From NCBI GenBank assembly GCA_965178125.1, contig OZ237759.1, positions 744,001 to 808,000 on the forward strand: a DNA stretch of 64,000 nt, read 5' to 3'. A program made the translations under genes and the position numbers. Below, piece by piece: positions 23,384-64,000 of this stretch (position 1 is the first letter of the stretch; each line of letters starts with the position of its first letter). The notes below the pieces were generated by a model. The model searched no databases. It saw only the letters and a program-made list of their open reading frames with translations, and was not told where the DNA came from. The stretch comes from Bilabrum cf. latius (Eukaryota).

Positions 23384-26130
23384 TCACGACCACGCCTCCA
23401 CCCTGACCCGCCCCTGCCTCTCCAACTCCTTCAGCATCGCCCTGGCTCGATCCTTCCCACCATCCGACCCCTCACTTGTCACACCTACGCCGCTCGTCAC
23501 ACCGCCAACGGCACTCAGGTGCCCCTCGATGCACTCCACCAGCACGTCCTTCACGTCGCTTGGCATGCGGTTCGCGCTGCCCGCAATGTACACGTAACCG
23601 CCTTCTTCCACGAGCGCCCGGCCAACCCATGCCGCCTGCTCCAGCAGTCTTTTTGTAACGTACACTTTGTGCTTTCCGGTGCTCCTCGAGAACGCAGTGT
23701 GCAGCCCTTGCAGCGCGCCCCCCTGCACCATCCTCAGCCAGTCGCGCGCATAATAATAATCCGAGTCCGCCCGCCGGCATCCAAAGAAGAGCCGCCAACC
23801 GACCTCACCAGGACCTACACTCTCGGCGTAGGACTCTGGAGATCGGAGCACATCTGCGGAACCTCCATCGCGCGGCCCCTGCACCAACATGAAGGGCGGC
23901 ACGTTGGCCGTTGCCGCCGCCGCCGCTCCATCACCCGCATCCCCAGCCGCGCCGCCGTGCGATGCACCCGACCTCAGCGCCGCCTCCCGCTCCATCAGCA
24001 GGGAACGCATGGGAGCGACTCCTGTACCCGGTCCAACCATAATGAGGGGGGCCCCCGGATCCACCGGTGGACGGAAGCTGCCGGGTACAATGTACATGGC
24101 AACCATGGCGCCTCCACCGGCACCGGCACCAGCACCAGCACCAGCACCAGCGTGCGATGCACTTGCCGGGAGCCCCGCTAGCCATGAGGAGCACAGCCCC
24201 TGCCTTTTGGCTCCGAATCTCGTGGTGTAGGCCAGCTTGGCCACGAGGAGCTCCAGCCTGCCGGGGAGGGCGCTGGGCCCCGAGGCGATGGAGAAGGACC
24301 TGGGCTGCAGGGGGGCCACCAGCTCCAGAAGGTGGGGCAGGGGAACATGGACGGAGGGAAAGTCCAGTAGGACCTCTAGCCAGGACCTGCTCTCCTGCTC
24401 GATGTACGCGAAGAACACGTCGGAGCCCCCCGGGCTGGCCATCTCGGCCAATTTCTCCGCCTCGTCCTCGTCAGCAGCGAAGAAGCTCAGCTGGCCGAGC
24501 GCGCGCCTCCTCGGCTTCCCGAACACGTCAAGGTACAGCGTGAAGAGATCTCGGACCGTGATCTCTGTACCGTAGGGCAGCCGGTGCGAAGGTGCCCTGG
24601 TGCGAGGCAGCCTGGTGGGATACCTTGCGACCAAGGGGTCGTGGGGAGACGGTCTAGCGACCCGCAGCGCGGAGGCAGACACACCCATCCCGCTGGATCC
24701 GGATAGAGCATCCGCTGCCTCCTCGGCGGCCTGCATGTCAGCGGCGGAGATACTTTCAGTTTCCAAGCGGGAGTCGGTGCTTGCAATTGCAAGCTCGCCG
24801 CCACCGGCAGCATCAGCATCGCTCATGGCAGGCTGCCAGGGCATCTCTCCCCCTGCACGCGTGGACATACTTCCATCCCCACTCCCGCTCCCAGCAGACG
24901 TACTTGCTGCCTAGCTATCTCCCGTCTCGCTGGTGCTCCTCTAGCTCAACGGCCGATCCAGGGCGGAAGGGAGGGCGGGATTGCGGTACACCCTTCGAAG
25001 CAGGTCCAGCACCTCTGCTGGGGTGGGCTCCAATTTCGATGACGTGTGACGAGTGCCGGCGGAAGCACCACCATCGAGCGGTGCATCTGGTGCTTCGCCC
25101 CCGTCCGCGTGTTCCCTGATCAGCACCGTGTCGTCTGGCCTGAGTCCCAGCCTCCCCCACATCGCTCGGAGCCTCTTTCCCCCGTCTCCGTCGTTCCTCG
25201 GCCAGAGAACACAGACGTCCCCTGCCTGCCAGCGCGGCGCCCCCTTAGGCAAGCGGAAGCGCAGGTGGCGGGTGTCTTGCGACCAGCCGCTCGCAGTGAC
25301 TCGCTCGTTCGACTCCAGCTGGGCGAGCATCGGGGCAAGTGTTCCCGTGGTGGATGACCGGTAGGCTCGCCCGGGAGGCGCAAGAAACGCAGGGAAATAC
25401 CTCGGCGCGCGGATGGGGTGGTGTGACGAGTGCGTTGGTGGTTTCAAGGATGTGCTGCTCGCCCGGCCCGCTGCAGTACTAGCAGTCGTGCGCTGCACCG
25501 AGTAGCGCGTGCCGGCCACCGCGGGCTGGTCCGAGATTGGCAGCAGCTCGGGCGGCGTGGGGCAGCGCTTCTGCAGAGCGGGCCACAGCTGGGTCTTGAG
25601 CCAGATATCAAGGTCGCCTTCGAGGCCCTGCTCGCTCTACTCGTCCGCAAGTCCCCTGGGGCACATATTTTTGGCGCCGAGCTGCTCCAGTCGAACGCTG
25701 AGCATGCGCGCAGCTGCATTGAACTTCTCGTACGAGGAATCCCCTAGGCCTAGGACTGCTACCTCGGTGCTCGACAGAGAATCATTCGGCAAGCTTGGTT
25801 GCCTTAGGAATTTCCAAAATGATGACATGTTATCCGGAACTTCGCCGTCTCCGGTGGTTGATGCGACAAACACAACCATACGGCGACGTGGCAGATGCTG
25901 CAACTCGATTGAATCCATCGGAATGCAGTCAGGGGAGCACCCCCTTCGTTCTGCCATATCAGAAATTCGCTCAGCAATATCCTGCGGACTAGCAGTGGGC
26001 CGAACACGGGAGAGAGAAAATCATTTCAAAGAATCGACAGGTCTGGCAATTTAGGACCGCAGCTCTCTCTTACCTGCGCGGTGCCAGTCTAGGATCCGTA
26101 TGCAATTAACAATTCATTTGGAGAGCTCAT
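23384..26130 (-). CDS. NDOR1: NADPH-dependent diflavin oxidoreductase 1 (Tah18/NDOR1); intron 25982-26073; 4 in-frame TAG
   Basis: Flavodoxin motifs IAYGS*TGTAQ, ASTTGDGEVPDN, GLGDSSYEKFN and RGLADE*; FAD/NADPH motifs PRSFSIAS, GLCS, MVGPGTGVAP and LFFGCR; C-terminal EAWS then TGA. TAG at 26089, 25637, 24941 and 24911. Confidence 0.93.
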
Positions 26131-26504
26131 TGCTGGAAGTACAATAGTGCAGGTACAGCAAGCAGTAACTGTTGCAATTGGGCCGAAGTGCGTGACGAGG
26201 GCACTGCTTGGCAACCAGCCCCCCGTGTTGCTGCATGATGTATGCATACAGCACAGTGTGGCGCTTGCTATATACCAAGTTATTATGAAAATCGGGCATC
26301 TCCCTTCAGCAGACACGACAGAGGACTGCGGGAGCTCAACTGCCACAGGTGTGGCGGGTTCGGCAAATTTCCCTTCCACCACCACCAGGCCCACTTGCGG
26401 TTGCTCGAAATCAACAGAAATCCCATAATCTTTGATTTCAATCCAACTAGATGCTTGCCCCGACATCTCCTGCACGCAGAACCCCACATTCCCCCAGGTC
26501 ACGA

Positions 26505-27285
26505 TCACTCCTCCTTCTCCTGGGAGTGGTACAGGTAGTACAGCGTGCCAGAGCCGGAGAGCAGTGTGCTCGCGATCCAAAATCCGAAAGCAGTGCCGTT
26601 GATCTGCGGGGAAGTGGAGGGGTCCATGAAGCACAAAATACAGTCTCATGCATGTGCAGGCGATGGCTCGGTGCAGCTTTGTTTACGGCAACCGATCAAC
26701 TCTAGTGTCCGAGCGAGTAGCCTAGCCGAACGGGCGGAGGCCTGTCCGATGCGTTTGCGTTAAATCTCACCTCTCCTGTGTGCAGCAGCACCAAAGGCAA
26801 CCCCAGCAAGCAGCTCATCACTGCTGCCACCACGCAAGTGCCGAAATTCGCTGTCTACCGCTGAGCTATTGTCATGTCATCCCAGTTGTCGTGCTTGGGG
26901 TTCACCAGGTGGAACAGAACAATAATGATGGGTAAGCACAATACGAAGACGAGATCCACGAACAAGACCCATGCGGATGTGATGGCAGCCCCAACGACTA
27001 GCAAGCAGAACGACAAGCCTATCGTTAACCCCATAACCTGCGGTGATTTGCAGCATGTTATGGAAGTCGCCACATTGGGAGTTCCTGTCAGATTCCATCA
27101 ATATAATGTATATGTGGCATGTGACTGACTGATTCATTTAGCGCCAATACGTTTGCCCCAAATCAAAGCCGAACCGCATGGTAGATACTGCTACAAATTG
27201 ATCCAGTCCACGGCAGCTGCCCCGCGATTCTCACCATTGTAATAGTTGCACCTTGCGATAGACCACAGCATTTTCCAGAACACAT
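26505..27285 (-). CDS. Vps55/LEPROT-like small multipass membrane protein (3 exons; in-frame TAG at 26855)
   Basis: Spliced model MCSGKCCGLSQGATITM|VMGLTIGLSFCLLVVGAAITSAWVLF...QR*TANFGTCVVAAVMSCLLGLPLVLLHTGE|INGTAFGFWIASTLL...EKEE-TGA. It has four hydrophobic segments and a GLPxV motif recalled from Vps55. Confidence 0.7.
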
Positions 27286-29119: not shown

Positions 29120-30433
29120 TCAACCAGAGCCCCACTGGATGCTGCCCTCGTTCGTCCTTGCGTTGAACGTGACCTTGGTTCCGCTGGCAAACGCGCGACG
29201 CCACTCATCCGTGGCCTCGTCATACACCGCATCCCCAAGGGGGGGCCCCAGCGGCCGGTCGAACAGCCCCGGGATCCAGTGCGTCTTGAAGGACCCCTGG
29301 TCTGCCGCGCTCGACTGCCACCCGCCAGTCACAAAGTAGTGGTATTCTCCAGCGCCGGCAAGGAAGGCGGCCACGTTAGGGAGACACGTCTCATTGGCGG
29401 GGGCCTTGTTGCAGCCCTGGTGGCACTCGTACACGATCCGCTTGCCGGTGCTACGGGAGTACCGAGTCAGGTTGCGGAGGGTCATGACCGTATCGTTCGA
29501 CGCAACGCAGCCCTCATGCAGCACGCCGTTCACGTAAGGCTCCTGCTCCCCGAAATCCTCCGGGGTGAGGATTTCTCCCGGAACTTTCCCGAGGAGAAGG
29601 CCGTCCCCCAGCGCGGCCGTCGTGTCCCTGAGTGCCTGGTGCCTGCCCCTGTCCCACCCGTACGCAGTGGTGGCATTCATGCCGTATTGGAGCTTGGTGC
29701 AGTTGAAGCGGCCTTTCCCGTCCCAGTCGGAAGGAGGCTGGCATGCCACCTGCCAGGAAGCGTCCGCCCCGCACCCGTCGATCACCCCGCTGGCGGTGAG
29801 GTTGAGGCACATGTCGCGCCAGTAGTCCCTGGCCGGCTGCTGGTCGAACCCGAACAAATGGCAGTGGCTCCAGGCGTCCATCGCGGGGGAGCCGTCCGCC
29901 CCCATGACCACGTACGGGTCACGATGCGTCTCGAGGAAACCGGCGGGGCGGAAGTGTCCCGTGGAGCAGGCCTCTGTGGCGTCTGGGTTTAGCGTGTGGT
30001 TCACGCCCGAGTGGCCTTGAGGTGGGAACCACCAGCCCGTGTAGATGCGCATGCTGTCCAGCCAGACAACCACGCTGGCGTCCGGGTTACGCTATTTGAT
30101 TTCCTGCGCAGACGCGACCATGGCGTCTTCCTCCCAAAGGAACACAGGGTTCCCCTCGCCGTCCTTGGCCTACGAGCCCTGCCACTTCTCGATCGTAACC
30201 AGTGGAAATCGGGAGATCGTTTCCATCTCGGCAGCGGAATAGGTGCCCGCTGGGCCAGTAGTGGATTCTGCGCTGTGAAAGGCCACCGGAACTGTGTCCC
30301 AAGACCACTTAGGCCCTTTGCAGGTGGCGCACGACGCCCGCCCGGCCTGCTCGCGTGCCCGTGCGACGCTTGACATCGCTGTAGCACTGGCCACAAGGGC
30401 TCCTATAATTATATGCTTACATAAAGATTTCAT
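29120..30433 (-). CDS. Secreted putative glycoside hydrolase (GHL15-like), 2 in-frame TAG (30170, 30092)
   Basis: Signal peptide; motifs WSWDTVPV, FPLVTIEK, AAFLAGAGEYHYF, DRPLGPPLG and WRRAF. Clear paralog of 30753..31913; ORFs 30170..30433 and 29120..30073 are in frame. Confidence 0.75.
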
Positions 30434-30752
30434 TGTACGCTACCGTGACGAAGTGTAAATCCTGTGAAAGATGCAAATCATCGAGTAGATCCAGAAAATA
30501 GCAAAATCATTCGGCAACCAGCACAGCCACACAGACCCATAGGAATAAAGGTGTCTCCCGCACCATCATACACTTTGAATACTTAATACGTTGACTCACG
30601 ACAGTAAACTGTGATTCCAGGGAAGGATCGCGCCGTAGCCGCGTTGCGTCGCGCGCTACTGAAGTAGCGTGCTAACGTCTGCATTGCTAGATCGTGCCGC
30701 GCTGATCCCTACACAGCAGCCCACGCACTGATTGCCCCGGTAGTATAGATTC

Positions 30753-31913
30753 ATGTTCTCGCAACTAAGCATACTGGCTGCGGTCGGCACGGTAGCGCTC
30801 GGCGCTGGACCTCCATTCACGTGGGACACCGTCCCTGTGTACTCACACATGTGCAACAAATCTGGCGAGTTTTCGCCCGAAACGGTGGCTGCCCTCGCGA
30901 AGTTTCCGATCGTTACGGTCGAAAAGGGCCAAGCAGTTGATCAGCCCGGATGGGCCGAGGACAAGATCGTCGCTGCGCTCAAGCAGGTCCGTGAAGCGAA
31001 TCCAGCTGTTCACACCGTCATGTACCTCAATTCAGTGCTGAGCTGGGAGCAATACAAGCTCTCCCAGACGATCGCAAGCGATCCAAAGTACCAGCTGCTC
31101 AACGACACGGGAAAACCGGTGCGGCAACACGGCGACCACAGCTTCAAGCAGCCTCCCAACGGAATGCTCATTTATGGGTTCGACAAGCAGCCCGCGAGGA
31201 GCGCCTGGTCGGGCACCTGCCTCACCGCAGTGAGCACGGGCTACGTGGATTCTTGCTTCAGCGACCGCTCCTCGGAAGACAGCTTCCACGACAACGTCCT
31301 GTCCCCGGCCACGCAAGCGGCCTACACTGAAGGTCACGCCGGGGTGCAGCGGGAGCTCCAAACGGCGCTGGACGGACAGGGCAACGGCGGTTTCGTGGTG
31401 GCCAACAACGGGGTCGTGCAAGGGGTGCGTGCAGGGATGTACGAGAGCTTCGGAGCGTCGAACGCAAGCATCAATGCCGTGCTACAGTACGTGCGGAACG
31501 GCTTCGGTAACAACACCGCGGAGGCTGCATCGAACGGTGGTGCATCGAAGTACGACCAGAGGTACCTTCTCGAGGTACACGCAGGGTATCACCCCGACGG
31601 CGACGACAACCACTGCAAGGACGGGGTCACCAACTCGCTGGCTGCATTCCTGATCGCCGCCGGGCCCAACTCGTACTACGGTTGCGCCAGCGACTGGGTG
31701 GTGTCCAAAGACGACCAGCAGTGGGTAAAGTGGTGGCCCGAGTACTCCAAACCCCTAGGGGAGCCCAAGGGGCCGGGGGTGTACGACCCCAGCTCGGGGT
31801 CTTGGAGCCGAGAATTCGGGGCCGGGACGGTGGTGACGTTCGACGCCGGCGCGGGGACGGGCCGGATCGAGTGGAGCGACGGCACGGTGAGCCAGGGGCG
31901 TAGGCGTGCGTGA
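30753..31913 (+). CDS. Secreted putative glycoside hydrolase (GHL15-like), intronless
   Basis: Signal peptide; motifs FTWDTVPV, FPIVTVEK, AAFLIAAGPNSYYG, WPEYSKPLGEPKG and WSREF; ends at TGA. Confidence 0.78.
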   Translation: MFSQLSILAAVGTVALGAGPPFTWDTVPVYSHMCNKSGEFSPETVAALAKFPIVTVEKGQAVDQPGWAEDKIVAALKQVREANPAVHTVMYLNSVLSWEQYKLSQTIASDPKYQLLNDTGKPVRQHGDHSFKQPPNGMLIYGFDKQPARSAWSGTCLTAVSTGYVDSCFSDRSSEDSFHDNVLSPATQAAYTEGHAGVQRELQTALDGQGNGGFVVANNGVVQGVRAGMYESFGASNASINAVLQYVRNGFGNNTAEAASNGGASKYDQRYLLEVHAGYHPDGDDNHCKDGVTNSLAAFLIAAGPNSYYGCASDWVVSKDDQQWVKWWPEYSKPLGEPKGPGVYDPSSGSWSREFGAGTVVTFDAGAGTGRIEWSDGTVSQGRRRA

Positions 31914-32508
31914 GGAGGAAAAGTGTGGGGTTAGGCAAGAACGGTAAGTGTTTAGTGGTGGCATCCAGGCCAGGCCAACCGGGTGACGTTGACGTTGGGG
32001 ACTCACCAGGGAGGAGAGCCAGGATCGGCCTTGTCGCATCCTACTTGACCCGACTTGCCGTGTTCTATTTCGAACAAAAGTTTGCAAATCGTGTGCGTGT
32101 GTACAACTGTGGGCGAAGCAGCGTCGGGGGCACGGTGCATTTTGGCGGGCCTTTGCGACCAATATATTGTAATTCCGAATCGTTTGTTCGACAAAGTTGT
32201 AGACACCCAATTGCGGCGCACTGAATCACTTTGAGTTCGGTAACACTGCATTTTCTTGGGCTTCTACGCCTGATATACTTAGTGGTCTACCGTTCAGGCG
32301 TATAGCTTTCCAAGCTATCGTGGATAGTAGGTTAGACCCTCCGTTCTCGAAACGATCAACCATTCTGTGTTCGACGAGACATTTAATACCTGTACGTGAC
32401 AGAACGCTGGCCCATTCTCGCTACAATTATAATAAACTTATTGGATTCAGGTGACACTTTGCTTACGAGATTTTGTGCGCGTATTCCCTCCGCAAGCAGA
32501 AAGAAAAA

Positions 32509-33911
32509 ATGTCAAACAGAAACAATGAAGCCGAGACTGCAGCAGTTCTAGAGATTGCCCTGAAATCAGTCTGCAAAGACATGCGAACCATAATTCTCGC
32601 GACTATGAGCGCATAGAGCGGTGCGTAGGCGCAGGCTCCGTGCCGCGAAGGAGAGGCTGCTGCAGTGGTAGCCCCACCATCCACTTCAGATAAAAGCTGG
32701 TGTCAAGTGTTTGCACTCATCGTCATCAACCTGCTGGTGCAAGTCGGACTTCTTTCTCCAGAAAATGCGCGCAACTTGCTCTTGGCCAGATTCCAGAAAG
32801 TGGCTGCCAGGCCCACCCAAGCGGGCCAGAAGCTTTCGCAGAAACAGGCCCAGGGTGCGTCGTCAACACCGCAGGATACGCAAGAGCTGACCATCATTAA
32901 GAAGTGCATGCGAGATGCTATTTCTGCGCAGCCGTCACCTGCTAAAATATCTGTAAACTCCCTCACCGCTCTTCTAAAGTAGAGAGTTGCGGCTGGTGCA
33001 CTGGCCCTGGCCCTCAACCCCCTCAATGAACGTGCGGACACTCTGGACTAGTTCTACAGTATCGCGAACAGCTCCCAGGCGCACGACGCAGAGCATCGGC
33101 GCAGTGATAGGGATCAAGCAACTTCTGGTTTGAGGTGTCAGCGAGTGCTGAAAACCGGCTACAGTACGGCGGTGGACCATATACGGCGACCGAAGTGGGA
33201 GGTCCCTGCCGTGCTGTGTGACAATGTCCGCAACAACGCAAAGACCGCTGTAGCGCGCGCCTTCCTTGAGGCTATCATGAACAGAATGCCACAGCATGGT
33301 CCTGAGACTATCATGAACAGCATGGTGAATGCTGGTTTGGACGTCGTAAGAGATAGCACTCTTCCATCTACACCGCGCTGCGCGGCAGCGGCTGGATCGT
33401 CTTGGTTACCTGGACAAGCTCGGGCTGGAAGCTGCGCTGATCCCGGTATGAGCGCACCATCTTCTTCTTCTCCATCTTCTTCTTCTTCATCATCTTCTTC
33501 TTCTTCATCGTCATCTGCATCTGCCGCCGGTGAGCCAGCCGCCGGTGCTGCCACAGGAGGGGCGGCCCTGGAGACGGCCGCCTAGGCCGTGGTCAAGATG
33601 CTGGAGAACACTCGCCTCTCGCTGGAGAAGATCCCTGATGCGAGGACGGGCAAGACAAGGCGAGAGAAAGCCATCGAAGAGCATGTGGCTGGTGAGGCTC
33701 AGAGACTTGAGGATTTACCCTTGCGGTGGCAACAGAACCCTGCAGTCAGGTCGCTGGCCATGTACGGGGACTATGCCGCTGCACTCGTGATGAGGGAGCC
33801 GAGTGCATTGGTCACATTCAGCGGGAATGGCGCAAAGGCCGTGGCTGAATACATGGGCACCTAGCAAGGTGGTGCTGGTGCTGGCGATGGCGCTGTTGGT
33901 CGTGTTCGTGT

Positions 33912-33961
<50 letters not shown>

Positions 33962-33992
33962 ATGGTCTTGGTCGTGGTCTTGGTCTTGGTCT

Positions 33993-34042
<50 letters not shown>

Positions 34043-45712: not shown

Positions 45713-46047
45713 CTACCTATCAGAAGGGGCTTTGGGGTTCATGTGGAGAGTATCGTACGATTTGCATAGTTGCACAGAAGTGTCGGCGTTTCTCATTGAA
45801 CAGATTTATGAAGTAGGCTACAAGAAAAATACATGGGCTGGTTTGACCGTGTAGATTGATCGTGGAAGTCAGTCTAGCAAACAAAATGATGCGCTGAAAG
45901 CCGACGCAAAAGACACACCTGAGCGTTCGAAAAATTATTCAATGCTGAAAAGGAAGAAAACGCACGCCGGCAAAGTGCCAGCGCCGCAGCGCTCAAGGAG
46001 CGCGCGGCAATGATGACGATAGCTGCGTCCGGCTGCCCCCAGAGGGC

Positions 46048-50511: not shown

Positions 50512-53500
50512 ATGGCCGACACAAAACATCATACTACTGCTTATGTTCCAGAAGGTCCTTGGAAGCTTGCTGGTGAGCTCAGTCCAAGTCCTACCACGGA
50601 TGGAACGCAAGCCGGCGAGCTGTTGCAAGCATCAGCGGCGCGGGACGAAACAGTACATCCTAGCTCCGGCAAGAACGCAAGTGAAGCTCATAGATCAAAT
50701 TCCCCAAATGCTTCGAGTCGAAATGCTGCATAGCCTCCGTTTCTGATCGAGGAGATTGACAGCGCTGCTGCTCAGGTGCATGCAAGGCTGCTGCGCAAGG
50801 CTGGCGCGAGCAGGACCGGCGATGCATCTTCTTTAAAGTCTAAGAGGATGCGATACGGCCAACACGAACCTGAACCATTCACTCGCGGTCAATTCAGCCT
50901 ATCAGTGGCTGGGCAAGGGGGAAGACGGGCCTCGAGCGGGCAACTGCTAGCGGCCCTTGGTCCCGGCCGGGGGGCTGCTCATGCGTCTCCCTCAACCCCC
51001 TCTTTCACCAGGCAAGGGTCGGCCCGCACCCTGGCATCAGAAGAGGGGGAATATGATGGAGATGGTAACGTGTCTTCTATCGATTGCTCGGATGATGACG
51101 AAGATGATGCAGCATGCTATGGTGCTGGGCGAGACCGCAGCCCGGGGGCAAACCACGGCAGCACGGGAAGCGGGGCACGAGATCAGCGGCAAGGGGGCGG
51201 CAGGAGCAGAAGCAGGAGCAGAAGCAGGAGCTCGTATACCTCCAGACCGACAGGCTCGCCTCAGTCTGGGACGTCCTTGCGCCGGTCTAGATCGCGCTCG
51301 TCACACTCGCCGACGCAATCACCCACAGGATCTGCGAGCGCCAAGAGCAGGGACGTGTCTCCATCCTCGGGGTCGTCTAGCACAAGGGGTGGCCAAACTG
51401 GCGCCAGATCCCCGCTGCGGCGCCAGGCCTAGGCCTTCAACGACCAGGAAGGAATGCCCCAAGTGGCTAACTCGGTCGATCACACGCAAGGGACTCAGCT
51501 GCCTTCATCCGCGGCCGACAAAGCGACCTGCTCGGGCACGGGGAACTCCGGCTCCGAATCGGCGAGCCCCAGCAGTTGCGATAATGACGAGTGCAATGGT
51601 ACTGTGGGCGTTGTGGGCATGGGTCTGGCCATCCGGCTGGGCTCACAGCCGGCCGTGCACCCAAGCCAGCTGGGGTCTCCTCTCGCTGGGTCTGATGCTG
51701 GCAGGGACGACGACGCCGATGCAGTGCCCATCGGGCCCATCAGCAGAGGCAGCGCTGCAAGCCCAGTGCAGTGGGACTGTCCAGTGCGTGTGTCTACGGA
51801 GGCACTGTCCCCGAAGAACAAGGAGGGTGCATTGCATGGCAGTGCCGATCGAAGGCTATGGTCGGAGAGCCGTGCCCCGGACGGAGAGACCCCGATGACG
51901 AGCATGCCCGCTGCCCCCAGCGAGTCGGGAGGGGGCACGATCAGGTCCAGGACAGGCACCACCATCGCCGCTGGGACCGGCCTCAAGAGCGGGCGGTTTT
52001 TCGCGAGAGAGCCCAGGGCCGAGTCCCCTTGGAGCCGAGGCAGCGGGACAGAGACGGACACGACTGAGATGTCCGGGCTGTACCCCGGGGGATGGGGGAC
52101 CTCTGGCAGGGAACAAGGTGACAGTCGAGGGGCAGAGCAACACGGCTCCGAGTTTGTGGAGGAGCATATTTGTGTGACGAGTGTGCTGGACTATGGGTAC
52201 GGGGACGGCGACTCCAGAGGGCCAGTGGAGGAGGAGGACGGTGATAGCGTGCGCTTTGTCCAGTCGTGGGTCACCAATGACGCAGATATGTCGGAGGGTG
52301 CGCATTCAAGGCAGGAGGATCTCGGTCGCAGCGAAGCCCACTCGAGATAGGAAGGCTTGGATCGCGGCTACAACGATCCCACTCGGGGCCGACAGCTCGT
52401 GGACCACACGGCAGAACAGGGCATCGGCCATGGTGCAGATGAGGTACACCAAGACTTGGGAGTGACTGGCGACAGCTACACCACGGGCCCAAGCTTCGTG
52501 ACGAGTGCCAACGATGGTGACACACTGAACACAGCCGGGACCTCGCTTATTGAGAAAAGAGCATTGCACTGCAGCGGGACCGGTAAGGACGACATGGAAC
52601 ATCAGCCGGGGAAGAAGTGCCTTCCCGAGTTGTCTCTCGGGTTCCTTTGGGCCGGGCAGAGGGGAAATGCAGGAGAGCGATGTGACGAGTGGGCCTCCCC
52701 CATCGGTGCGAGTGGGAGTGGCCAAACAGGCGGCGAGTTCGGGCCGCACTCGCCCGGTAGCGGCAGCCAAGGGGGCTCAGGGGCAGGGAACAGCAGCCAT
52801 GGGGCCATGGCCGCCCTGCAGCACGCCGTGGATCGGATGGCTCACGGCAGCGACATCGAAGGCAAGCAGGGGTAGACTGACTGCAGCCCTGGAGCGCGCA
52901 GCGGCGCTGGGAAATTGGGTCCTTTCAGGGGTGCGCACGCGGGTTTACCCACTCTCGCCTCTGCCCTAGAGGTGTTTCGCCTCTTTGCCCAGGTGGGCGC
53001 CGGATCTTCCACCGAGCAGGCGCTCATGTCCGTCCTCGGCCTCCTGCGGCGGCCCAGGGTGGCTCACAGTGTGACGAGTGATGTATGCACGAGAGAGGAG
53101 GACAACGTCCAGATGGAGCGACAGCTGGACAGCACAGGAGGAGAACCGGAAGTCGTCTGGTCGAGCGAGGGCTCGCCAGACGCTGAGTTGCTGGGCGTGG
53201 CAGCAGCATACGAGGTGGCATGCACCGTGGGCAGCGTCACACTCAAAGCGGCCGTGGCGGATGCGCTGCTGGGCACAGTGTGCGGGGCTGATAGTGCCGC
53301 CCCCCTGCCAGGCGCAGTGCACTGCGGTGCATTCGCCGGCCCGTCCACCGGCTCGCCTCCTGCCGCAGTGCACTGCGGTGCATTCGCCGGCCCGTCCACC
53401 GGCTCGCCTCCTGCGGCTCCCTTGGACCATTCCGCGGATTCCGTGGCCGAGACTCTTGGCGGCCCGGTGGCATGTTCCCGCAACTTCCGATCCCATGGCG

Positions 53501-55596
53501 ATGCCCCGCTCCAGGCACAGAGCTAGTGCAGTCCGCAGGGAACAAGAGGATCTCCGGTCGCGGAGGAGCTAATCAGCTCGCACTGCGACACCGTGGACGG
53601 CGCGTTCGCACAGTTCGCCAAGCAACACGCGCCTGCAGCGGAGCAACCGGGACCGGGGTGGCTGGCGAGAAGCAGCCAGCCGGGCTCCGCACGAACCCTG
53701 CAGGCCGGCTTCACGGCAGGTTGTGCCGCATAGGACAGCGAGGCCACGCATGGACCGAACCCAGGTGCAGCCATAGGCTCGATGGGGTGGGCTCGGCCGG
53801 CGTGGGAGGTGCCTGCGGTCGACCCCTATCAGTTCCGCGAGAGCCAGGAGGGCGGCAGGCCAGGCCACGTCCGGTACCAGCACCATTTGGCGCCTTGCCT
53901 GTTGGCCAGAGTGGTGGATCTGCAGGCGCACAGAGCTGGGAGGATGCAGGTGGAGGCGGCTCGGCGGGAGATGGAGGGGCAGCTCAGGAGGTACCTGAGG
54001 GGGCAGCAGGTGCACTGCACGCAAGTGCACTCAGACTCCGAGGGGGGCGTCAGTAGCAGCTGGTAGGCCGCTGCATGTACCCATCACCCAGCCGAGCATC
54101 ATCATCCCGCGGGTCACTACCAAGATGGGTATGCCAAAGGGAGAGGAGGCGAGCACGGTGGGATTCCCCCGGAGTACTCGTACGGCCAGTTCCAGGGAAC
54201 AGTAGCGAATGTTGACGATGACATCCACGCGGCAGACGAGGAGGCCATGCGGACGCTGGGTCTGAGCGGGGTAGCTGCCTCGATGGGGACGAAGGGAAGC
54301 GGCAGGGAGGGCACGGGGGCAGAGGGGAAGGGAAGCGGCAGAGAGGGCACGGGGGCAGAGGGGAAGCAAGGCAGCCGTAGCACCATCGATGGAGACGATC
54401 GAGACACGGGTCACGGGTACAGGGGGGGCATATCTGCTACCGATCCGCAGATGGACCGCTACGATCCATCGGTGCGGCACAATGGAGAATCGAGCGGGTC
54501 TCAAGGGAACGAACCAGGGAACAAACCAGGGAACAAATGGTTCCTGGCGGCTCGTGTACCTCCCCCCTGCGACACCGACGAGTCAACCAGCCAGGAAGAA
54601 CGCAAGGAGCAGCAGGACGGGCTAGACTGGAACGGGCATGACTCGGATAGGTCGATGCATGAAGCTACCCGCGGCGAGGGCATGATGGTGACCACTGTGG
54701 GGGGGACACGGGGACTGCTGCCCGTCTCACGCACCGGCATCGACCCGGCGACAGGGGGGCTGGTCATCGGAGGGCGCTTCCAGACAGCTCACGGGATGGG
54801 CAAGAGCGGTTGCAACCCCGTGCCAGCGGATGCTTGCAATCGCCCTGCAGTGTCAGACCCACGGCCACGGTGTGGCTCGGCCCCCGCTGGTACCAGCGGC
54901 GGCGGCCCGACCCATGCCCTGCGCCGCAGCTCCTTGGACCCGTTATCCTCCGGGGAGAGCTTGGGATCGCCAGGGCCCGCCAGGCTCTTCGGGCCCAGGA
55001 GGAACAGACAGGTCCTCGGGATGCAGTGTGACGAGCGAAGAGCCTCCTGTCTGCAGTGCCACCAGCTGCGGCTGCGGCTGCAGACCGTGCGTGCCACCCA
55101 CCGCGCGCGCGTCAGGGCACTGAAGCGGGATATGGGCGCGGCAGCAGAGGCCATAGAAGACCTCAGAATGGCACTTAGAGTGGCGCGCAGGCGACGAAGC
55201 AGCGGGAGCAAATCGGCGAAATAGGATACCAACGGAAAGGCCATGTCGGAGCCGGGACATGCCGGTGGGGCGAGATGCCATGGCGAAAGTATAAATTACG
55301 CCCAGCCCTCGTACCGACAGCCGGACGAGAACGAGGACGAAGAGGGGGAGGAGGGCGGTGAGCCGTTCGATGCCAAAGACGAGGCCATCGAGGAGCTGAG
55401 AGCCATGTGCGCATTCCTGCGCTCAGAGATTCGCGCCGAGCGTCGGGCGGCTAGGAAGAGAGAGAGGCTAGGCGCTCGCCTGCTGGCAGAGAACGCCGCT
55501 CACTTCGCGCTGCAGGAGCACCGGATGGCGACGGCGTGCCGAGCGCTGGTGCAGTGGGTCGCGCGGTCGGGCGATGCGAGCGAACAAGTCTGCTGA
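50512..55596 (+). CDS. Very large disordered hypothetical protein (~1690 aa; start uncertain, frame open from 50101), 8 in-frame TAG
   Basis: ORFs at 50101, 50776, 51454, 52357, 52915, 53782, 54247 and 55243 are all in the same frame and each ends in TAG except the last (TGA). The C-terminus is coiled-coil-like. Confidence 0.72.
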
Positions 55597-55644
55597 CCGC
55601 TAATTATGCAGAATACTGCTATTCATACTGTCGATTCCTGCAAT

Positions 55645-56238
55645 TTATAAGCCATTGTCTTTCCCGCTGGTTCCGACCTCGAGCTCCAGCTCCCGGACCC
55701 GCCTCGACAGAATTTCCACGACTCGAACCAGGCGAGCCACGTCGTCCTGCGCCTTGTCTAACTGTGCAGCGAGTATTCTATTATCGGACCTAACCTAGCC
55801 TGTTTTCAGGTCCACGTGCTCTTTGATGCCGGCCACTTCGGACGTCACACGAGCCGCTAAGTCCTCTCCGGTGCCTCGAATCGCATCCTCCTGTCGGTCA
55901 AGCCGCTCGGTCATTCCGTTGATTTCGATCCTGTGCTAATCGATAGATGCGTCGTGCTCCGCAGCTCTGGTTCTCAGTCTGCTCACTACATCTCGCAACC
56001 TTGAGCCGCCATCGTCCAGAGGAGCCGCACTCTCGTGCGAGCGGGCGGTGGCTGAAAAGCCCGTTCGACTGAAGGCAGACGGTGACTACATAAAACTCCA
56101 CAGCAAATCCGCCCGATGTATTCCGGAGAACTTTTGCTATTCTGCGCGCCCACCCGATTGGAGGAGAAGCGAGTACGGCGTCACTATCCGGCTCCGAATC
56201 GCCGAAAAAGAGCCGTTCACATGACGACAACAATTCAT
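55645..56238 (-). CDS. Hypothetical coiled-coil protein (197 aa), 4 in-frame TAG, ends in TAA; absent from the ORF track
   Basis: MNCCRHVNGSFSAIRSRIVTPYSLLLQ...DASID*HRIEINGMTERLDRQEDAIR...ILSRRVRELELEVGTSGKDNGL-TAA. Confidence 0.62.
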
Positions 56239-56408
56239 CGATTCCCGATAGCTATGGCTGCATCAAGTAACGCTCTAAATCTTGCTCTGAAATACGCAGC
56301 ATTTAGTCTGTACACTATCGATTATCAGCTAGACGCTCACGCCCGCGCACACGCCACACACAAAACATAATCACGGCTTGGCCAAACACCCACCGCACCC
56401 TCTCCCCC

Positions 56409-58499
56409 TCACTGCCTCTCGCCACCGCCCCCCCGGCCCTGCTCGCCCTCTCTGAAGCCCTCCCAGTCCCCGGGCACCTCCACCACCCTGGCCTCCTCCT
56501 CCTCACCACTTACCCACGCCACCCTCCCGCCCCGGCCCCCCCTGCTGACGGGCCGCGCACCGGCAGGCGCGCCCATACCCCCCATCACAGGGGCCTGCGA
56601 CGGCCGGCTGGCACCCCCCACGCCGCTCCCACCCGCCTGTTTGCCCACCCCCTGCTCCGCCTCGATGACTGCCTCTGCCCTCCCGAGCCCCTTGTTCACG
56701 TAGACCGCCCTGGCCTCCGAGAAACCGGTGCTCTTAGCCTGCAGCTCGCTGAGCTTGTCCTGCAGCACCTGCTCGAACAGGGCGCGGTTCACCTGCGCGC
56801 CGCCCCGGCCGTACGCAGCGCCCTGCACACCCAGCATGAGCTTGGAGATGGCGCGCCCGCTCATCCCCTCCGTCAAACCCGCTACCTCCTCCCAGTACGC
56901 GTCCGTGAAATCGTCCCCCTCGATCGACAGCCGGGCAGCGGAGGGCCGCCCCAGCCCGAACAACACACCAGGTGCGTCCTTCCCCGCGTCCCTCACGTAC
57001 TCCTGAAAGTACTTCTTGAGGAGCGCCACCCTCTCCTGTTCCCCGGGCAGCTCGAAGTGCAGGGCCTCATCCACCCTGTCCCCCACGGCGCTGTCGAGGT
57101 CCTCGGGCCGGTTGGTCGCGAGGACCAGCATGATGTCCCGGGAGGCCTCTCCTGTCCTGGCCAGCACGGCATTCAGGGCGTTCCTCTGCTCCTCGCTCAT
57201 GCCCTGCCTCGCTCTCGAGCTCAAAAAGGCATCGGCCTCGTCGATGAACAGCAGCAGCCCGCGGCGGGTGGTGCTCGACCAGTCGAACAGCTTGTGCAGC
57301 TCGGTCACGGCCTCTCTGCCCAGCGGCCCCACGTCTCCGCCCGTCATGAGTGCATAGTCCATCCCGGAGCTGAGCGCGAGTCGCTTGGCGAGCATGGTCT
57401 TGCCAGTCCCCGGGGGTCCGTAGAACAGAGCGTGCCTGAACGGGGCGCCAAACTTGCGGGTGCTGGCAGTGGCCGCCGCCAGCTCCGTCACCCTTCGATC
57501 CAGAGACTTGTCGAGGATCACGCCGGAGATGCCCGTCTCGGCCGGAGGAGCCATGCCCAGCCTGCGCATCAGCATGCGCCTGATCCCGAAATGTCCGGCG
57601 GTGCGGGAGGTCTCGCGGACGAGCTGGGGCTTGAACAGACGTGCCTCCAGCACCCTGCGGGCCACCCTCGTTCCCTCCCGCATGCCGTAGATGCCGGCCG
57701 CCACCGCGGTCACGCCCAGCACCGCTGCGCCCATCTTCTCCCGGTCGCCCAGGAAGCCCCCCATCTGGGAGCCTAGGGAAGAGAAGAACGTTTGTACCGC
57801 TTCTTTGACTTGCTTGACGCGCTGCTCGCCCTTGAGCTGGATCTGCTTCGCGTAGATGTCCTCGTTCTGCCGCATCTCCTCGATGCGCCCAGCTGCCTCG
57901 GCGTTGGCGCGGGCGACGATGTTCTCGCGTTCCAGGGCGGCGCGATGCTCATCGGATCGCCGACGTTCTGCCTAAATCTATTCTTCAGTCTATCGTCTCA
58001 TGTGTTCTCGCTCCATAGCCGCAGCATTTTGCTGACGAACAAGCTCCGCGTTGCGTTTCCTTGCCATTTCATCTTCAAATTGCATTTGCTACCTCTTTGC
58101 TTGCATTCTTTCTTGTTCTAATTGCTACGATGGATGTGAATTGGATGACAGTCATAAAAATGCATGCGTTTCCTGGCACAGACGCAGACAAAGTCGACTG
58201 ATCCAGCAAGGACAGGGACCCCGTCTTGAGCGCCCTCGCTCTACTATATCACTCACTCTTGCCATTTGCATACGATGCTCCTCTGTTTTGCGCTACTCTT
58301 CATACTTTACACGTTCCATTGATACTTGGGCTTCAGCCTGCCTGGCCCGCGCGGTCTCTTGCTCCGTTTCATATTTCTTGTTCTTCAACGCCTGCTCCCT
58401 TCGGGACAGTTCAATCGCAGTCTTTGAGTTCCTTGATGATTCAAGCTATCTTGCGAACTTTGCTGCTCGTTCAAGGGCATCCGCATCAAAATTGGACAT
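56409..58499 (-). CDS. ATAD3: ATPase family AAA domain-containing protein 3 (mitochondrial); intron 58125-58256; 6 in-frame TAG
   Basis: N-terminus MSNFDADALERAAK, coiled coil TEE*I*AERR, KPQLVRETSR, FYGPPGTGKT, MTGGDVGPLG, LLFIDEADAFL, LATNRPEDLD and GMSGRAISKL; ends at TGA. Confidence 0.93.
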
Positions 58500-58642
58500 G
58501 AATCACGAGGCTCACGGATCGTGCCGTCGTGCGTGGTCCAGCCTGAAGCGCCACAGTGTACTGCATCCAATGCGGAGCCCCAAATTGTATCACATTTCTC
58601 GATTCGCCAGCATCAGAACATATTTTTGGGCCCTTGGTTGCG

Positions 58643-61588
58643 ATGCGACTGTTATTATTGATCCTATGTGTCGTTCTTGGTTGCTTGCGGCTGGCCTCGA
58701 CACGCACTATGACTGGAATGGAGCATGTCACAAAGCACATCGAGCGTGAAACCCAGGAAGCCAACGTGCTTAAGCAGAAGATACAAAGCCTATCCAGCTT
58801 TAAGATAAGCGGCAATACAAATAAGCAAGGAGTTGGAACAGGCGATCCGATTCAGGCAGACATTGGACCAAATGGTGACATACACAATACCGATTCCCAC
58901 GCAAATGGGGTGGAGCAGACCCAACCTAAAACCAAGACAGATACAAACACAGCCCCAACCTCTGCTGAGCCCGGTCAAGCTGAGGAAGCAAGGCAAGCTG
59001 AGGAGGCCAGAATCGCTGAGGAGGCCAGAATCGCTGAGGAGGCCAGGCAAGCTGAGGAAGCCAGAATCGCTGAGGAGGCCAGAATCGCTGAGGAAGCAAG
59101 GCAAGCTGAGGAGGCCAGAATCAATGAGGAGGCCAGGCAAGCTGGGGAGGCCAGGCAAGCTGAGGAGGCAAGAATCGCTGAGGAGGCCAGAATCGCTGAG
59201 GAAGCCAGGCAAGCTGAGGAAGCCAGGCAAGCTGAGGAAGGCAGGCAAGCTGAGGAGGCCAGAATCGCTGAGGAGGCCAGAATCGCTGAGGAGGCCAGAA
59301 TCGCTGAGGAGGCCAGAATCGCTGAGGAGGCCAGAATCGCTGAGGAGGCCAGGCAAGCTGGGGAGGCCAGGCAAGCTGAGGAGGCCAGAATCGCTGAGGA
59401 GGCCAGAATCGCTGAGGAGGCCAGGCAAGATGGGGAGGCCAGAATCGCTGAGGAGGCCAGAATCGCTGAAGAGGCCAGAATCGCTGAGGAGGCAAGAATC
59501 GCTGAGGAGGCCAGAATCGCTGAGGAGGCCAGAATCGCTGAGGAGGCCAGGCAAGATGGGGAGGCCAGAATCGCTGAGGAGGCCAGAATCGCTGAAGAGG
59601 CCAGAATCGCTGAGGAGGCCAGAATCGCTGAGGAGGCCAGAATCGCTGAGGAGGCCAGAATCGCTGAGGAGGCCAGAATCGCTGAGGAGGCCAGAATCGC
59701 TGAGGAGGCCAGGCAAGATGGGGAGGCCAGAATCGCTGAGGAGGCCAGAATCGCTGAGGAAGCCAGGCAAGCTGAGGAAGCCAGGCAAGCTGAGGAAGGC
59801 AGGCAAGCTGAGGAGGCCAGAATCGCTGAGGAGGCCAGAATCGCTGAGGAGGCCAGGCAAGCTGAGGAGGCCAGAATCGCTGAGGAAGCCAGGCAAGCTG
59901 AGGAAGCCAGGCAAGCTGAGGAAGGCAGGCAAGCTGAGGAGGCCAGAATCGCTGAGGAGGCCAGAATCGCTGAGGAGGCCAGGCAAGCTGAGGAGGCCAG
60001 AATCGCTGAGGAGGCCAGAATCGCTGAAGAGGCCAGAATCGCTGAGGAGGCCAGAATCGCTGAGGAGGCCAGAATCGCTGAGGAGGCCAGAATCGCTGAG
60101 GAGGCCAGGCAAGCTGGGGAGGCCAGGCAAGCTGAGGAGGCAAGAATCGCTGAGGAGGCCAGAATCGCTGAGGAAGCCAGGCAAGCTGAGGAAGCCAGGC
60201 AAGCTGAGGAAGGCAGGCAAGCTGAGGAGGCCAGAATCGCTGAGGAGGCCAGAATCGCTGAGGAGGCCAGGCAAGCTGAGGAGGCCAGAATCGCTGAGGA
60301 GGCCAGAATCGCTGAAGAGGCCAGAATCGCTGAGGAGGCCAGAATCGCTGAGGAGGCCAGAATCGCTGAGGAGGCCAGAATCGCTGAGGAGGCCAGGCAA
60401 GATGGGGAGGCCAGAATCGCTGAGGAGGCCAGAATCGCTGAAGAGGCCAGAATCGCTGAGGAGGCCAGAATCGCTGAGGAGGCCAGAATCGCTGAGGAGG
60501 CCAGAATCGCTGAGGAGGCCAGAATCGCTGAGGAGGCCAGAATCGCTGAGGAGGCCAGGCAAGATGGGGAGGCCAGAATCGCTGAGGAGGCCAGAATCGC
60601 TGAAGAGGCCAGAATCGCTGAGGAGGCCAGAATCGCTGAGGAGGCCAGAATCGCTGAGGAGGCCAGAATCGCTGAGGAGGCCAGAATCGCTGAGGAGGCC
60701 AGAATCGCTGAGGAGGCCAGAATCGCTGAGGAGGCCAGAATCGCTGAGGAGGCCAGAATCGCTGAGGAGGCCAGAATCGCTGAGGAGGCCAGAATCGCTG
60801 AGGAGGCAAGAATCGCTGAGGAGGCCAGAATCGCTGAGGAGGCCAGAATCGCTGAGGAGGCCAGAATCGCTGAGGAGGCCAGAATCGCTGAGGAGGCCAG
60901 AATCGCTGAGGAGGCCAGAATCGCTGAGGAGGCAAGAATCGCTGAGGAGGCAAGAATCGCTGAGGAGGCAAGAATCGCTGAGGAGGCCAGAATCGCTGAG
61001 GAGGCCAGAATCGCTGAGGAGGCCAGAATCGCTGAGGAGGCCAGAATCGCTGAGGAGGCCAGAATCGCTGAGGAGGCCAGGCAAGCCGAGGAGGCAAGAA
61101 TCGCTGAGGAGGCAAGAATCGCTGAGGAGGCCGAGAAGGCGGGAATTTTTCCGTCTGTTTGGGATGTTGAGCACAGTAAGGAGAAGGCTGGGCAATACTG
61201 GAACGCTGTCTCTGGATACTATGGGGACGTTACTCGGAGCGTTATGGGCGCAGTCTCAGAGTTGGCTGGATAGTTGTCGTCTGCAGTTGGGTACTTTTGG
61301 CGGCAAAGGCGGGCTATCGGTGTACTATTGGGGATTTGTGCTATGGCAGCCGGCATGGTTTGGGTGATCGTCCGAGTGTGCTGCAGCAGGCCTGCTGCCA
61401 GGCGCGCGGGTGGGTCGGGAGCTGGCTCCCGGCAAGTTGCTAGGAGCCCTAGTAGTGGTCCATTTGACCGTGGCAGCCAGTGGGATGAATACCTGGACGA
61501 GTCACAGGCGTGGGAGAGTGGCATGGGGAAGAAGCCGGCTGTGGCTTACCAGGGGGTGGTAAAAGTGGGAGCAGGCGGGGTAGGCTGA
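58643..61588 (+). CDS. Signal-peptide protein with ~120 AEEAR(I/Q) repeats and a C-terminal TM helix reached through TAG at 61271
   Basis: N-terminus MRLLLLILCVVLGCLRLAS. ORF 58556..61273 (TAG) abuts in-frame ORF 61274..61588, which contains IGVLLGICAMAAGMVWVIV and ends at TGA. Confidence 0.8.
58979..61133 (+). repeat. 18-bp coding tandem repeat (GCTGAGGAGGCCAGAATC / ...AGGCAA)
   Basis: Directly visible, with higher-order blocks of variant units. Confidence 0.97.
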
Positions 61589-61700: not shown

Positions 61701-62827
61701 TCATGCCTGCGCCGCTTCCAGCACCTCGATCCTCCGGAGGGCCATGGCAAGCTGAGCAGCGAGACCCGCCACCTGCCTCTCTAGGCCGTCATGGCGATCT
61801 GCATCAGATCGGAGCAAGCCTCCCCCACGCCTGTCCGCCAAGGTGCTCGTAGCTGCCTTCATGGTGGCGTACTGGGGCAATATGGCGTTGTACTCTGCCC
61901 CTATCGGTGCCTTGTGACTCCTCAGGACCTCCACGCATTCCGCGTGTCGCTCCAGAGCGGCAGCCGCCATCGGTGTGACGAAGTGTCCCGTGGGCAGGAA
62001 TCCTTTCCTCGCGTGGCCCTGCGCCAGCTTGCCAAGCCTCAGTCGCTTGGCCAGCTCCAGAGGCCGTCCAGTGGAGGCAGCTTGGAAGACACAGGCAGCG
62101 TCTCTGTGCGCCTCGTGTGCTCTTCTCCATCGAAGCAATTGCTGCCACCTTGGCGGCTTGAAGCTGGCTATCAACGCTGCAATCTGTTCGTTGCTCTCGC
62201 GCACCGCCTCCGCGAAACATGTTCGGCCTTGCTGTGAGTAGAAACAGCTGCCTGAAAACACCATGGTATTATTTGCACTTGAACAATAGGTACCAAAATT
62301 CAACTAGCCTCGGCGCTGGCAAACTCACAGTGTCCCGTATGAACCGGTTGGCTCCCGCTCGCAGCAGATACTCTACAATTTCCTTGCTAGTAGCTTTCTA
62401 CCGGAATGCAGCACGATGCAGCGGGGTATCTCCATTCTACTATCATGGACCAGCTCAATAAGTGAGTGACATGCTTGAAGAGGACGCCTGTACTAGTCGG
62501 TCTAAATGTACCCAGATCAGATTCAAGTCCAGATGCTCACCTTATCTTGTTTGTTGAGATCCACCCCACACCGTACCAGAGCTTTAGCAGCCTCCAGTTT
62601 GCCTGACTCAGACGCCGCATGTAGAGGAGTTTTCCCGAACTGCAGGCATACCGGCAATAAGATCAGCCAAAACTATCGTTTTTAGTGCCAGTGCCGGTGG
62701 CTGATGAGACGAGCGCAATTCAGAGGCTGAAGCCGCTCACGTCCGGCCTTCCCAAAGGTGCATTTAGATCACATCCTTGCAAAAATAGTGATTCGATGGA
62801 CGCACCATCGTCAGCATCGATTGCCAT
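61701..62827 (-). CDS. Ankyrin-repeat protein (exons 62827-62741, 62639-62541, 62436-62329, 62231-61701; start uncertain); TAG at 62398
   Basis: FGKTPLHAASESGKLEAAKALVRCGVDLNKQDK; NGDTPLHRAAFR*KATSKEIVEYLLRAGAN; VTPMAAAALERHAECVEVL; ends at TGA. Confidence 0.85.
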
Positions 62828-63122
62828 CTTGACTTGCCCCGACCTGCTCGCGATAACATGGGCGGGTGTGGCTCAACTGTGATAGAAGTGGAAGTCTGTT
62901 TCATGCCATCGTAGCTACTGCTAACATCGTATTTGAAAAGAATATGAGCGGATCGATAGCCAAATCTGCAGCTTTGGGGAATAGCTGGGGAATAGTCTAG
63001 GGCCTAACCGAAAATATTGATGAGGAGACCAAAAAATTGGCCAACCGATGTTACCAGGCATAGCCAAAGCAAACACATAAACTGGATGCTATATCCGGGG
63101 AATCATATTGGTCAATCCCTGA

Positions 63123-64000
63123 TTAACAGCATCCTCCCTCAGCCTCCTCGGCCAGCCCCCCCCTGGCCGCCACCGCGACCCTCTCGTGGTCCTCCCTCTT
63201 GGCCCTCTTGGCGTCCTCGTGGGCCTTGAAGGCGCCAGGGTGCGCCCCGATGCTCTTCACCAGCGTCTAGATCGCCTGCTCCACGTTGTCTCCCGTCTTG
63301 GCGCTCGTCTCGACGAGGCCGACGAAACCGTTCCTGGTGGCGTACTCCTTGGCCTCGTCCATCGAGACGTCCCTCCTGTCGGCGAGGTCGCTCTTGTTGG
63401 CCACCAGCAGGACAGGCAGGGGAGACCCGTCGGGGAGAGTTACCTTGGATCGGATCTCATTCTTCCACTGCGCGCGGGAGCGACAAGAGGGAAAGGAGGA
63501 GGGGAGTGCCGACAGCAAGGCAAACGACTGCCACCTGGGAGGCGGGTCATTCAAGACCAAGACCGATTTACGGGCCCGCGCATGAACACATTATTTGATC
63601 AGCTGTACTCACCACTTCGATAGACTCGAACGATTTCTTCGAGGTCTAGTCAAACACCAGCAGAGCTCCAAACGCGTCCCTATAGAATACTCGAAAGATG
63701 GCGCCAAAGCGATCCTAGCCTGCAACACAAATATATAGCGGTGTAACGACGTGGACATATAAGCTGTACGACTGAATTGGTCGGGCAACGGATGAGAGCA
63801 GAGCCTGCCTGCTTACCAGCAACGTCCCAACTGCGAGGTGAGATTGCTTGGTCATGACATTGGACGAGTTTCGGCACGAATCGCGTTGCCATCAACGTGT
63901 AGACAACACAGTGATGTCACTCACAGCTAGAGGGAGCCACGTATTGTCCCAACGTCAAACTATTTAAGGTGAAAGTCCACGCCCACGGTGGGCTTCTAGT
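63123..64000 (-). CDS. Rab32/38-like GTPase (5' part outside window), several in-frame TAG, ends GGCC-TAA
   Basis: Spliced model [88 protein letters not shown]...ETSAKTG...AI*TLVK...EGGCC-TAA. Confidence 0.9.

Follow-up and report, generated by a model that had tools for sequence, protein, structure and literature searches.

Evidence for a nuclear genetic code that reads UAG as glutamine in a GC-rich protist probably related to bicosoecids

Introduction

Changes of the nuclear genetic code are rare, and still rarer are those in which UAG and UAA part ways. Here we analyse a probable case in a 64 kb stretch of DNA (contig OZ237759.1, positions 744,001 to 808,000, assembly GCA_965178125.1; hereafter the window), in which TAG stands in frame in conserved genes and appears to be read as glutamine (Gln, Q), the meaning that TAG also has in NCBI translation table 15. 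The UAG-only glutamine codes set out in PMC11687900 belong to four lineages, namely the fornicate Iotanema spirale, the ciliate Protocruzia tuzeti and two lineages of phyllopharyngean ciliates; a first-pass annotation of the window had rightly named Iotanema spirale and phyllopharyngeans but missed Protocruzia tuzeti. As described there, these codes are like that of the window in that UAG means glutamine while UAA and UGA go on serving as stops. The same source links the use of UAG with higher GC content, and the window, which has 55–66% GC and contains no N, is in line with this link. It differs from Iotanema, Protocruzia and the phyllopharyngeans in lineage (its closest named relatives are stramenopiles), in its GC-rich genome and in introns of 92–323 nucleotides (nt).

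The lineages given in PMC11687900 for a joint reassignment of UAA and UAG to glutamine (NCBI table 6) are many ciliates, ulvophyte green algae, Hexamita, Streblomastix and Amoeboaphelidium. In table 6 codes, as in the window, glutamine takes over a stop codon, presumably via a mutated tRNA-Gln. Other uncoupled changes of UAG are those of an uncultured rhizarian (UAG = Leu) and of Scotinosphaera (UAG = Ser), both listed in PMC11687900, and that of an oligohymenophorean ciliate with UAA = Lys and UAG = Glu (PMC10553269). These share with the window that UAG shifts its meaning and UAA does not follow; their residues (Leu, Ser, Glu) differ from the glutamine proposed here. Codes without a dedicated stop, as reported for Condylostoma, karyorelicts, Blastocrithidia and Amoebophrya sp. 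ex Karlodinium, resemble that of the window in having standard stop codons in frame inside genes. In the literature searched, which left supplements and most subscription journals outside, we found no nuclear code change in any stramenopile; the stramenopile work that came up concerns mitochondria, or the stops of Blastocystis that are made by polyadenylation.

Results

TAG, but not TAA or TGA, is frequent in frame

Five long open reading frames (ORFs) of the plus strand, all ending at TGA, comprise 7192 codons and hold 47 in-frame TAG, with 0 TAA and 0 TGA. They lie at 14283-18029 (1248 codons, spanning 14283-18026 up to the stop; 18 TAG beside 21 CAG and 13 CAA), 32455-35556 (1033 codons of a low-complexity protein; 11 TAG), 36458-41872 (1804 codons; 6 TAG), 41936-45712 (1258 codons; 4 TAG, at 41969, 42245, 42314 and 44006) and 50047-55596 (1849 codons; 8 TAG). 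Judged by their other two frames, 22.5–47 TAA plus TGA would be expected per ORF (47 for ORF 14283), and the probability of finding none is 1.7e-10 to 3.9e-21 per ORF. The in-frame density of TAG, 0.0065 per codon, is near its off-frame density. Since TAG is about as common in frame as out of frame and TAA and TGA are excluded, selection bars TGA and TAA from these frames, but not TAG. The first-pass annotation had described the TAG pattern as window-wide, and it does reach beyond 23384-64000: besides the 18 TAG of ORF 14283, an ORF at 1-1344 holds eight.

Five genes backed by homology served to train a codon-usage model, which scored all six frames with stop codons left out. It ranked the TAG-bearing frame first in 8/8 test ORFs; the margin was small in two (ORF 32455 and ORF 1-1344). 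Raw ORF length under alternative codes was rejected as evidence, because reading TGA as sense yields even more long ORFs in such GC-rich DNA. Across the 13 ORFs counted, TAG makes up ∼12% of TAG + CAG + CAA, ranging from 0/25 glutamine-type codons in the ribonucleotide reductase (RNR) gene described below to 18/52 (35%) in ORF 14283. This variation from gene to gene suggests, but does not show, that TAG is a minor, non-preferred codon.

Conserved genes carry TAG at glutamine positions

Three conserved genes of the minus strand hold 16 in-frame TAGs, including all those that the first-pass annotation had cited in them, which we re-read and found in place. The first encodes an NDOR1-like diflavin reductase (23384-26130; exon 1, 26130-26074; exon 2, 25981-23384; TGA at 23386-23384) with the Pfam domains Flavodoxin_1, FAD_binding_1 and NAD_binding_1 and with PDB matches to CPR and NDOR1. 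Its intron of 92 nt (26073-25982, GTAAGA..CGCAG) is predicted from the sequence and from homology; the exon joint then runs from ..YGSxTGTAQ to DIAERI.., in agreement with homologues (x denotes TAG). The four TAGs of this gene are at 26091-26089 (YGSxTGTAQ), 25639-25637 (GLADEx), 24943-24941 and 24913-24911. The second gene encodes ATAD3 (56409-58499; exon 1, 58499-58257; exon 2, 58124-56409; TGA at 56411-56409; Pfam ATAD3_N and AAA) and is split by an intron of 132 nt (58256-58125). Its upstream exon has TAGs at 58448-58446 and 58295-58293; further ones follow at 58091-58089, 57992-57990, 57980-57978 and 57974-57972, the last two in the motif TEExIxA.

The third gene, for a Rab32/38/7L1-like GTPase (63123-63998; best PDB matches Rab7L1, Rab32 and Rab38), has its 5′ end beyond the window. 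Its model consists of four exons (63998-63925, 63830-63817, 63719-63613 and 63467-63123) separated by three predicted GT..AG introns of 94, 97 and 145 nt, and contains TAGs at 63998-63996, 63962-63960, 63929-63927, 63717-63715, 63648-63646 and 63269-63267. Upon removal of the introns the motif SLxLWDVAGxDRF emerges, in which the two x are the TAGs at 63929-63927 and 63717-63715. The LWDVAG part of this motif depends on the putative 14-nt micro-exon 63830-63817, which lies between the introns of 94 and 97 nt. Two public protein fragments, P0285 (96% identical) and P0286 (98%), flank the TAG at 63269-63267, one ending just before it and the other starting just after it; a gene caller that applied the standard code to other data containing this TAG would be expected to leave such a break.

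Gene models carrying an X at each TAG were aligned to homologues (120 for ATAD3, 42 for the NDOR1-like protein and 53 for the Rab, the latter being proteins of 160–270 residues taken from the 150 best representatives). A further protein, P0284, was aligned with the Rab set; it was kept out of the count tallies and entered the log-odds scoring. Fourteen sites, at each of which 10 or more homologues have a residue, were scored using weighted sequences (ATAD3, six; NDOR1-like, two; Rab32-like, six), leaving aside the NDOR1-like TAGs 24943-24941 and 24913-24911, which fall in a lineage-specific insert absent from homologues. Glutamine was the commonest residue at 7/14 sites. It occupied the ATAD3 site 57974-57972 in 115/117 homologues and 58295-58293 in 95/101; in the Rab, the LQLWD site (63929-63927) in 31/40 and the AGQ site of switch II (63717-63715) in 32/41; and in the NDOR1-like protein 26091-26089 in 22/38 and 25639-25637 in 30/39. 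The log-odds summed over the 14 sites were +22.1 for Gln, −9.1 for Glu, −9.3 for Lys and −12.7 for His; Leu, Ser and Glu, the meanings of UAG in the rhizarian, Scotinosphaera and the oligohymenophorean ciliate, all scored far under Gln. Glutamine, the assignment made by the first-pass annotation, is thus by far the best single one, with Glu next.

As a control, the CAG and CAA sites of the same three genes were scored in the same manner. Their mean Gln log-odds was +0.71, with Q commonest at 13/53 sites, compared with a mean of +1.58 for the TAG sites; the sites of all other residue classes tested had negative means (−0.61 to −2.25). TAG sites therefore resemble the genes' own CAG and CAA sites and those of no other residue. 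PDB alignments of the NDOR1-like and ATAD3 proteins were not decisive, since the TAG sites lie outside the informative aligned parts, except that of GLADEx, which pairs with GDDD of CPR. A metagenome scan with ATAD3 returned 71 loci, none of them close (best segments 64–73%), and the eight inspected gave no information on the code of the window's lineage. One of the metagenome loci, L066, has a TAG right behind the conserved ATAD3 end, apparently an ordinary stop in that other organism.

Spliced contigs retain the TAG codons

Twenty sequencing runs were found to contain the ATAD3 stretch or part of it, and four of them from four studies (X1, X5, X6 and X8) were compared over 41900-58400. X1 and X5 hold the unspliced sequence with introns kept. 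In contrast, the ATAD3 intron (58125-58256) and the RNR intron 48318-48535 are excised exactly at GT..AG in contigs of X6 and X8, which come from two other studies; X6 contigs additionally lack the RNR introns 48773-49095 and 49174-49278, so that four introns are gone as against two in X8. Over ATAD3 (56648-58124 and 58257-58400) the X6 and X8 contigs have 0 other letters. The listed contig pieces include nine TAGs in X6 and eight in X8, likewise with 0 other letters: those of ATAD3 starting at 58295, 58091, 57992, 57980 and 57974, three of ORF 41936, plus one of ORF 50047 (51430) that is confined to the X6 pieces. The sole letter differences reported over 41900-58400 were two RNR positions in a second X6 contig.

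These contigs bear on the view that there is no code change at all, the TAGs being removed or altered before translation (as introns or by U-to-C editing) or belonging to pseudogenes or assembly errors. Long chance ORFs do arise in GC-rich DNA, and one TAG of the raw ATAD3 ORF, 58127-58125, is truly intronic: the spliced contigs identify it as the 3′ splice site of the intron and thus as non-coding. At the remaining ATAD3 TAGs that they cover, however, spliced contigs from two studies run straight through with unchanged letters, which argues against both editing and splicing-out, the two outcomes that the first-pass annotation had named as able to overturn its proposal. The letters are also the same in four runs of four studies, and the frames exclude TGA and TAA fully but TAG not at all, whereas pseudogenes would gather all three stops. 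The view is thus largely refuted already, and we regard it as extremely improbable. Collectively, these data argue that UAG is present in mature mRNA, neither edited nor spliced out.

The four runs that share this sequence carry four organism labels. In X1 the window sequence has a word depth of 5–8, as against 1034 for an unrelated contig of the same run. The window organism may be a minor cobiont or a contaminant of the sequenced material.

UAA and UGA still terminate

In three genes a conserved C-terminus allowed the gene end to be assessed. The NDOR1-like protein ends in ..EAWS and the RNR in ..CLNCGS, both matching homologues and both followed by TGA; the Rab32-like protein ends in ..GGCC, a prenylation end common to homologues, followed directly by TAA at 63125-63123. 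In none of the three (0/3) did the conserved C-terminus stand directly at TAG. All 13 ORFs counted end at TGA, which closes 13/14 of the gene ends seen, and in-frame TAA was absent from the five long ORFs where ∼23 would be expected from the other frames. On both strands together, the window contains 355 TAA, 892 TAG and 1876 TGA trinucleotides.

Conserved ends at TGA or TAA, together with the lack of in-frame TAA, confine the change to UAG: only TAG is reassigned, and UAA and UGA still terminate, as the first-pass annotation had proposed. Unlike in table 6 codes, TAA is not a sense codon in the window, and a joint reassignment of UAA and UAG was rejected on the missing in-frame TAA and the TAA that closes the Rab gene. 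Unlike in codes without a dedicated stop, no TGA or TAA stands in frame in any ORF counted, and both codons close conserved genes.

TAG might nonetheless be ambiguous, meaning glutamine inside genes and stop at some gene ends according to context, as in Condylostoma and karyorelicts or as UAA in Blastocrithidia. Because TGA and TAA set the limits of our ORFs, a gene truly ending at TAG would simply look longer, and the tail of ATAD3 does extend ∼60–100 residues past the end of most homologues, though it contains no TAG. Yet each of the 3/3 genes with a conserved C-terminus closes at TGA or TAA, 13/13 ORFs continue to TGA, and an ORF such as 14283, with its 18 TAGs, would need efficient read-through at every one of them. 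We therefore consider ambiguity of TAG unlikely.

Points that weigh against glutamine

Several observations count against reading UAG as glutamine, among them the delimiting of ORFs just mentioned. The scoring covers 14 sites in three genes, and the sites do not all agree. At ATAD3 58448-58446, 100 homologues have E 77, K 10, D 8 and Q 0; at Rab 63998-63996, Y stands in 18/31; at Rab 63648-63646, V, L or I in 44/50 and Q in two; and in three more scored columns the homologues vary, or most of them have K or A. At ATAD3 58091-58089 and 57992-57990, the homologues as a whole favour K and A, but the 25 closest of them favour Q or E; Rab 63962-63960 and 63269-63267 lie in variable columns. A tRNA scan found no tRNA gene of any kind in the 64-kb window, and the gene for eRF1 lies outside it. 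Finally, X6 and X8 are labelled as RNA by guess (X6 as 'probably DNA'), and their RNA nature is supported by the spliced joints; none of the listed runs is recorded as RNA, and rare variants may be lost in contigs.

The disagreeing columns are what would support a sense codon for some other residue, glutamate or lysine being next best: beyond the ATAD3 site with E in 77/100 and no Q, E or K is commonest at three further sites, among the closest or among all homologues. Against this stand the summed log-odds, positive for Q and negative for E and K, and the presence of TAG at four near-invariant glutamine positions (Rab AGQ, Rab LQLWD and the two ATAD3 columns with Gln in 115/117 and 95/101). 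Another residue is accordingly very improbable, and glutamine remains our assignment.

The window organism probably groups with stramenopiles

The RNR large subunit gene (46048-49278, minus strand; Pfam Ribonuc_red_lgC, E 3.5e-217) has a main exon from 48317 to the TGA at 46050-46048, preceded by introns 48318-48535, 48773-49095 and 49174-49278; this main exon has no in-frame TAG, with 23 CAG and 2 CAA. Its product is 99% identical to P0163 and 82% to P0164. The best named matches are Cafeteria roenbergensis (76%) and then Rhizochromulina, Tribonema, Incisomonas, Pinguiococcus, Aphanomyces and Triparma, all stramenopiles; some Bacteroidota are also among the matches. A quick maximum-likelihood tree with 28 rows placed the window sequence, P0163 and P0164 together as sister to Cafeteria (Shimodaira–Hasegawa-like approximate likelihood ratio test, SH-aLRT, 90; the branch was not starred), with Bacteroidota separate from these three. 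The NDOR1-like protein likewise has Cafeteria as its best named match (40%), followed by oomycetes. ATAD3 disagrees, with a best named match filed as Symbiodinium sp. KB8 (56%).

On such single-gene evidence the organism is probably a protist of the stramenopile–alveolate–rhizarian (SAR) group, and probably a heterotrophic stramenopile near bicosoecids. The first-pass annotation had held that it looked like neither Iotanema nor a phyllopharyngean ciliate and had guessed at an independent reassignment. The first point agrees with the nearest named relatives of the RNR and NDOR1-like proteins; and because these are stramenopiles, not ciliates or fornicates, they also support the second, so that UAG = Gln is probably of independent origin in the window organism.

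The RNR of the window organism and of other stramenopiles is 68–74% identical to the enzymes of Bacteroidota, and the latter are its sister group in the quick tree. This resemblance hints at an old transfer of RNR between bacteria and eukaryotes.

Other features of the window

The genes of the window are of nuclear type, with GT..AG introns of the lengths given above. Beside the genes for RNR, ATAD3, the NDOR1-like diflavin reductase and the Rab32/38/7L1-like GTPase, there are two GHL15 genes, a DDAH/ADI-like gene, a tandem family and several very long low-complexity ORFs. An Rfam scan of the 64 kb found no Rfam family.

The tandem array consists of near-identical plus-strand genes at 3689-5524, 6636-8117 and 8858-10693 (∼490–610 codons each, GC content of third codon positions ∼0.8), and a fourth, partial copy lies 7 kb away at 18046-18987 (plus strand). 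The encoded proteins have a hydrophobic N-terminus that resembles a signal peptide and have no Pfam match. The copies end at TGA, and an in-frame TAG (..SLCExPASLK..) is common to 3/3 copies that cover the site; since all of them keep it, the comparison of copies was uninformative as to the meaning of TAG.

The GHL15-family genes are arranged divergently. Gene 1 (29123-30565, minus strand) has two TAGs in its conserved part (..KWQGSxAKDG.. and ..QEIKxRNPD..), and gene 2 lies at 30732-31913 on the plus strand; the Pfam GHL15 E-values of the two are 1.5e-16 and 1.5e-29. The DDAH/ADI-like gene (1112-2410) is directly followed by a 17-nt tandem repeat (2399-3143, ∼44 copies, 98% matches). On the minus strand, ORF 11847-14042 (732 codons, one TAG) has a weak match to RVT_1 (E 1e-4, below the Pfam cut-off) and is possibly a retroelement remnant. 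ORF 14283 contains a P-loop-like motif and has no Pfam family. The plus-strand ORF 58547-61588 (1013 codons) encodes an (EEARIA)n protein that is hydrophobic at its N-terminus and has another hydrophobic stretch at its C-terminus. An 18-nt unit recurs ∼119 times over the repeat 58997-61137, and the Pfam matches of this ORF to HRP and hexapeptide were discarded as repeat artefacts. Ankyrin-repeat-like exons at 62269-62700 on the minus strand (..GDTPLHRAAFRxKA.., ..GKTPLHAASESGKLEAAKALV..) have more in-frame TAGs.

Discussion

In expressed, conserved genes of the window TAG serves as an ordinary in-frame codon; it survives into spliced transcripts and matches glutamine in homologues. We are confident that the window comes from the nuclear genome of a GC-rich protist, probably a bicosoecid-related heterotrophic stramenopile, whose cytoplasm reads UAG as glutamine and terminates at UGA (mostly) and UAA. 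This looks like a UAG = Gln code of the known kind in an apparently new lineage, and is very probably a rare variant code in a lineage for which none had been reported. We also lean, by a little, towards a wider claim, namely that this is the first nuclear stop-codon reassignment in stramenopiles: an independent UAG = Gln code, with UAA and UGA as stops, in a GC-rich, bicosoecid-related heterotroph that went unrecognized in runs under four labels and whose genes lie cut up in public protein sets.

How UAG came to be decoded can be proposed by analogy with other lineages in which UAG or both UAA and UAG mean glutamine. A dedicated tRNA-Gln with the anticodon CUA, one base away from CUG, would decode UAG, and eRF1 would have lost or weakened its recognition of this codon. 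With TAA scarce and TGA at 13/14 gene ends, freeing UAG would have cost little in such a GC-rich genome.

For those who work with data sets that include this organism, the consequences would be practical. Standard-code gene callers truncate its proteins, as P0285 and P0286, split at the Rab TAG, illustrate; because proteins are fragmented in this way, annotation, phylogenomics and contamination screens of such data sets are wrong unless TAG is read as Gln. If the code is as proposed, a further origin of UAG = Gln in another supergroup, and with a GC-rich genome, would be a data point on stop-codon capture, bearing on GC pressure that makes TAA scarce, on the single mutational step by which the CUG anticodon of tRNA-Gln becomes CUA and on the specificity of eRF1.

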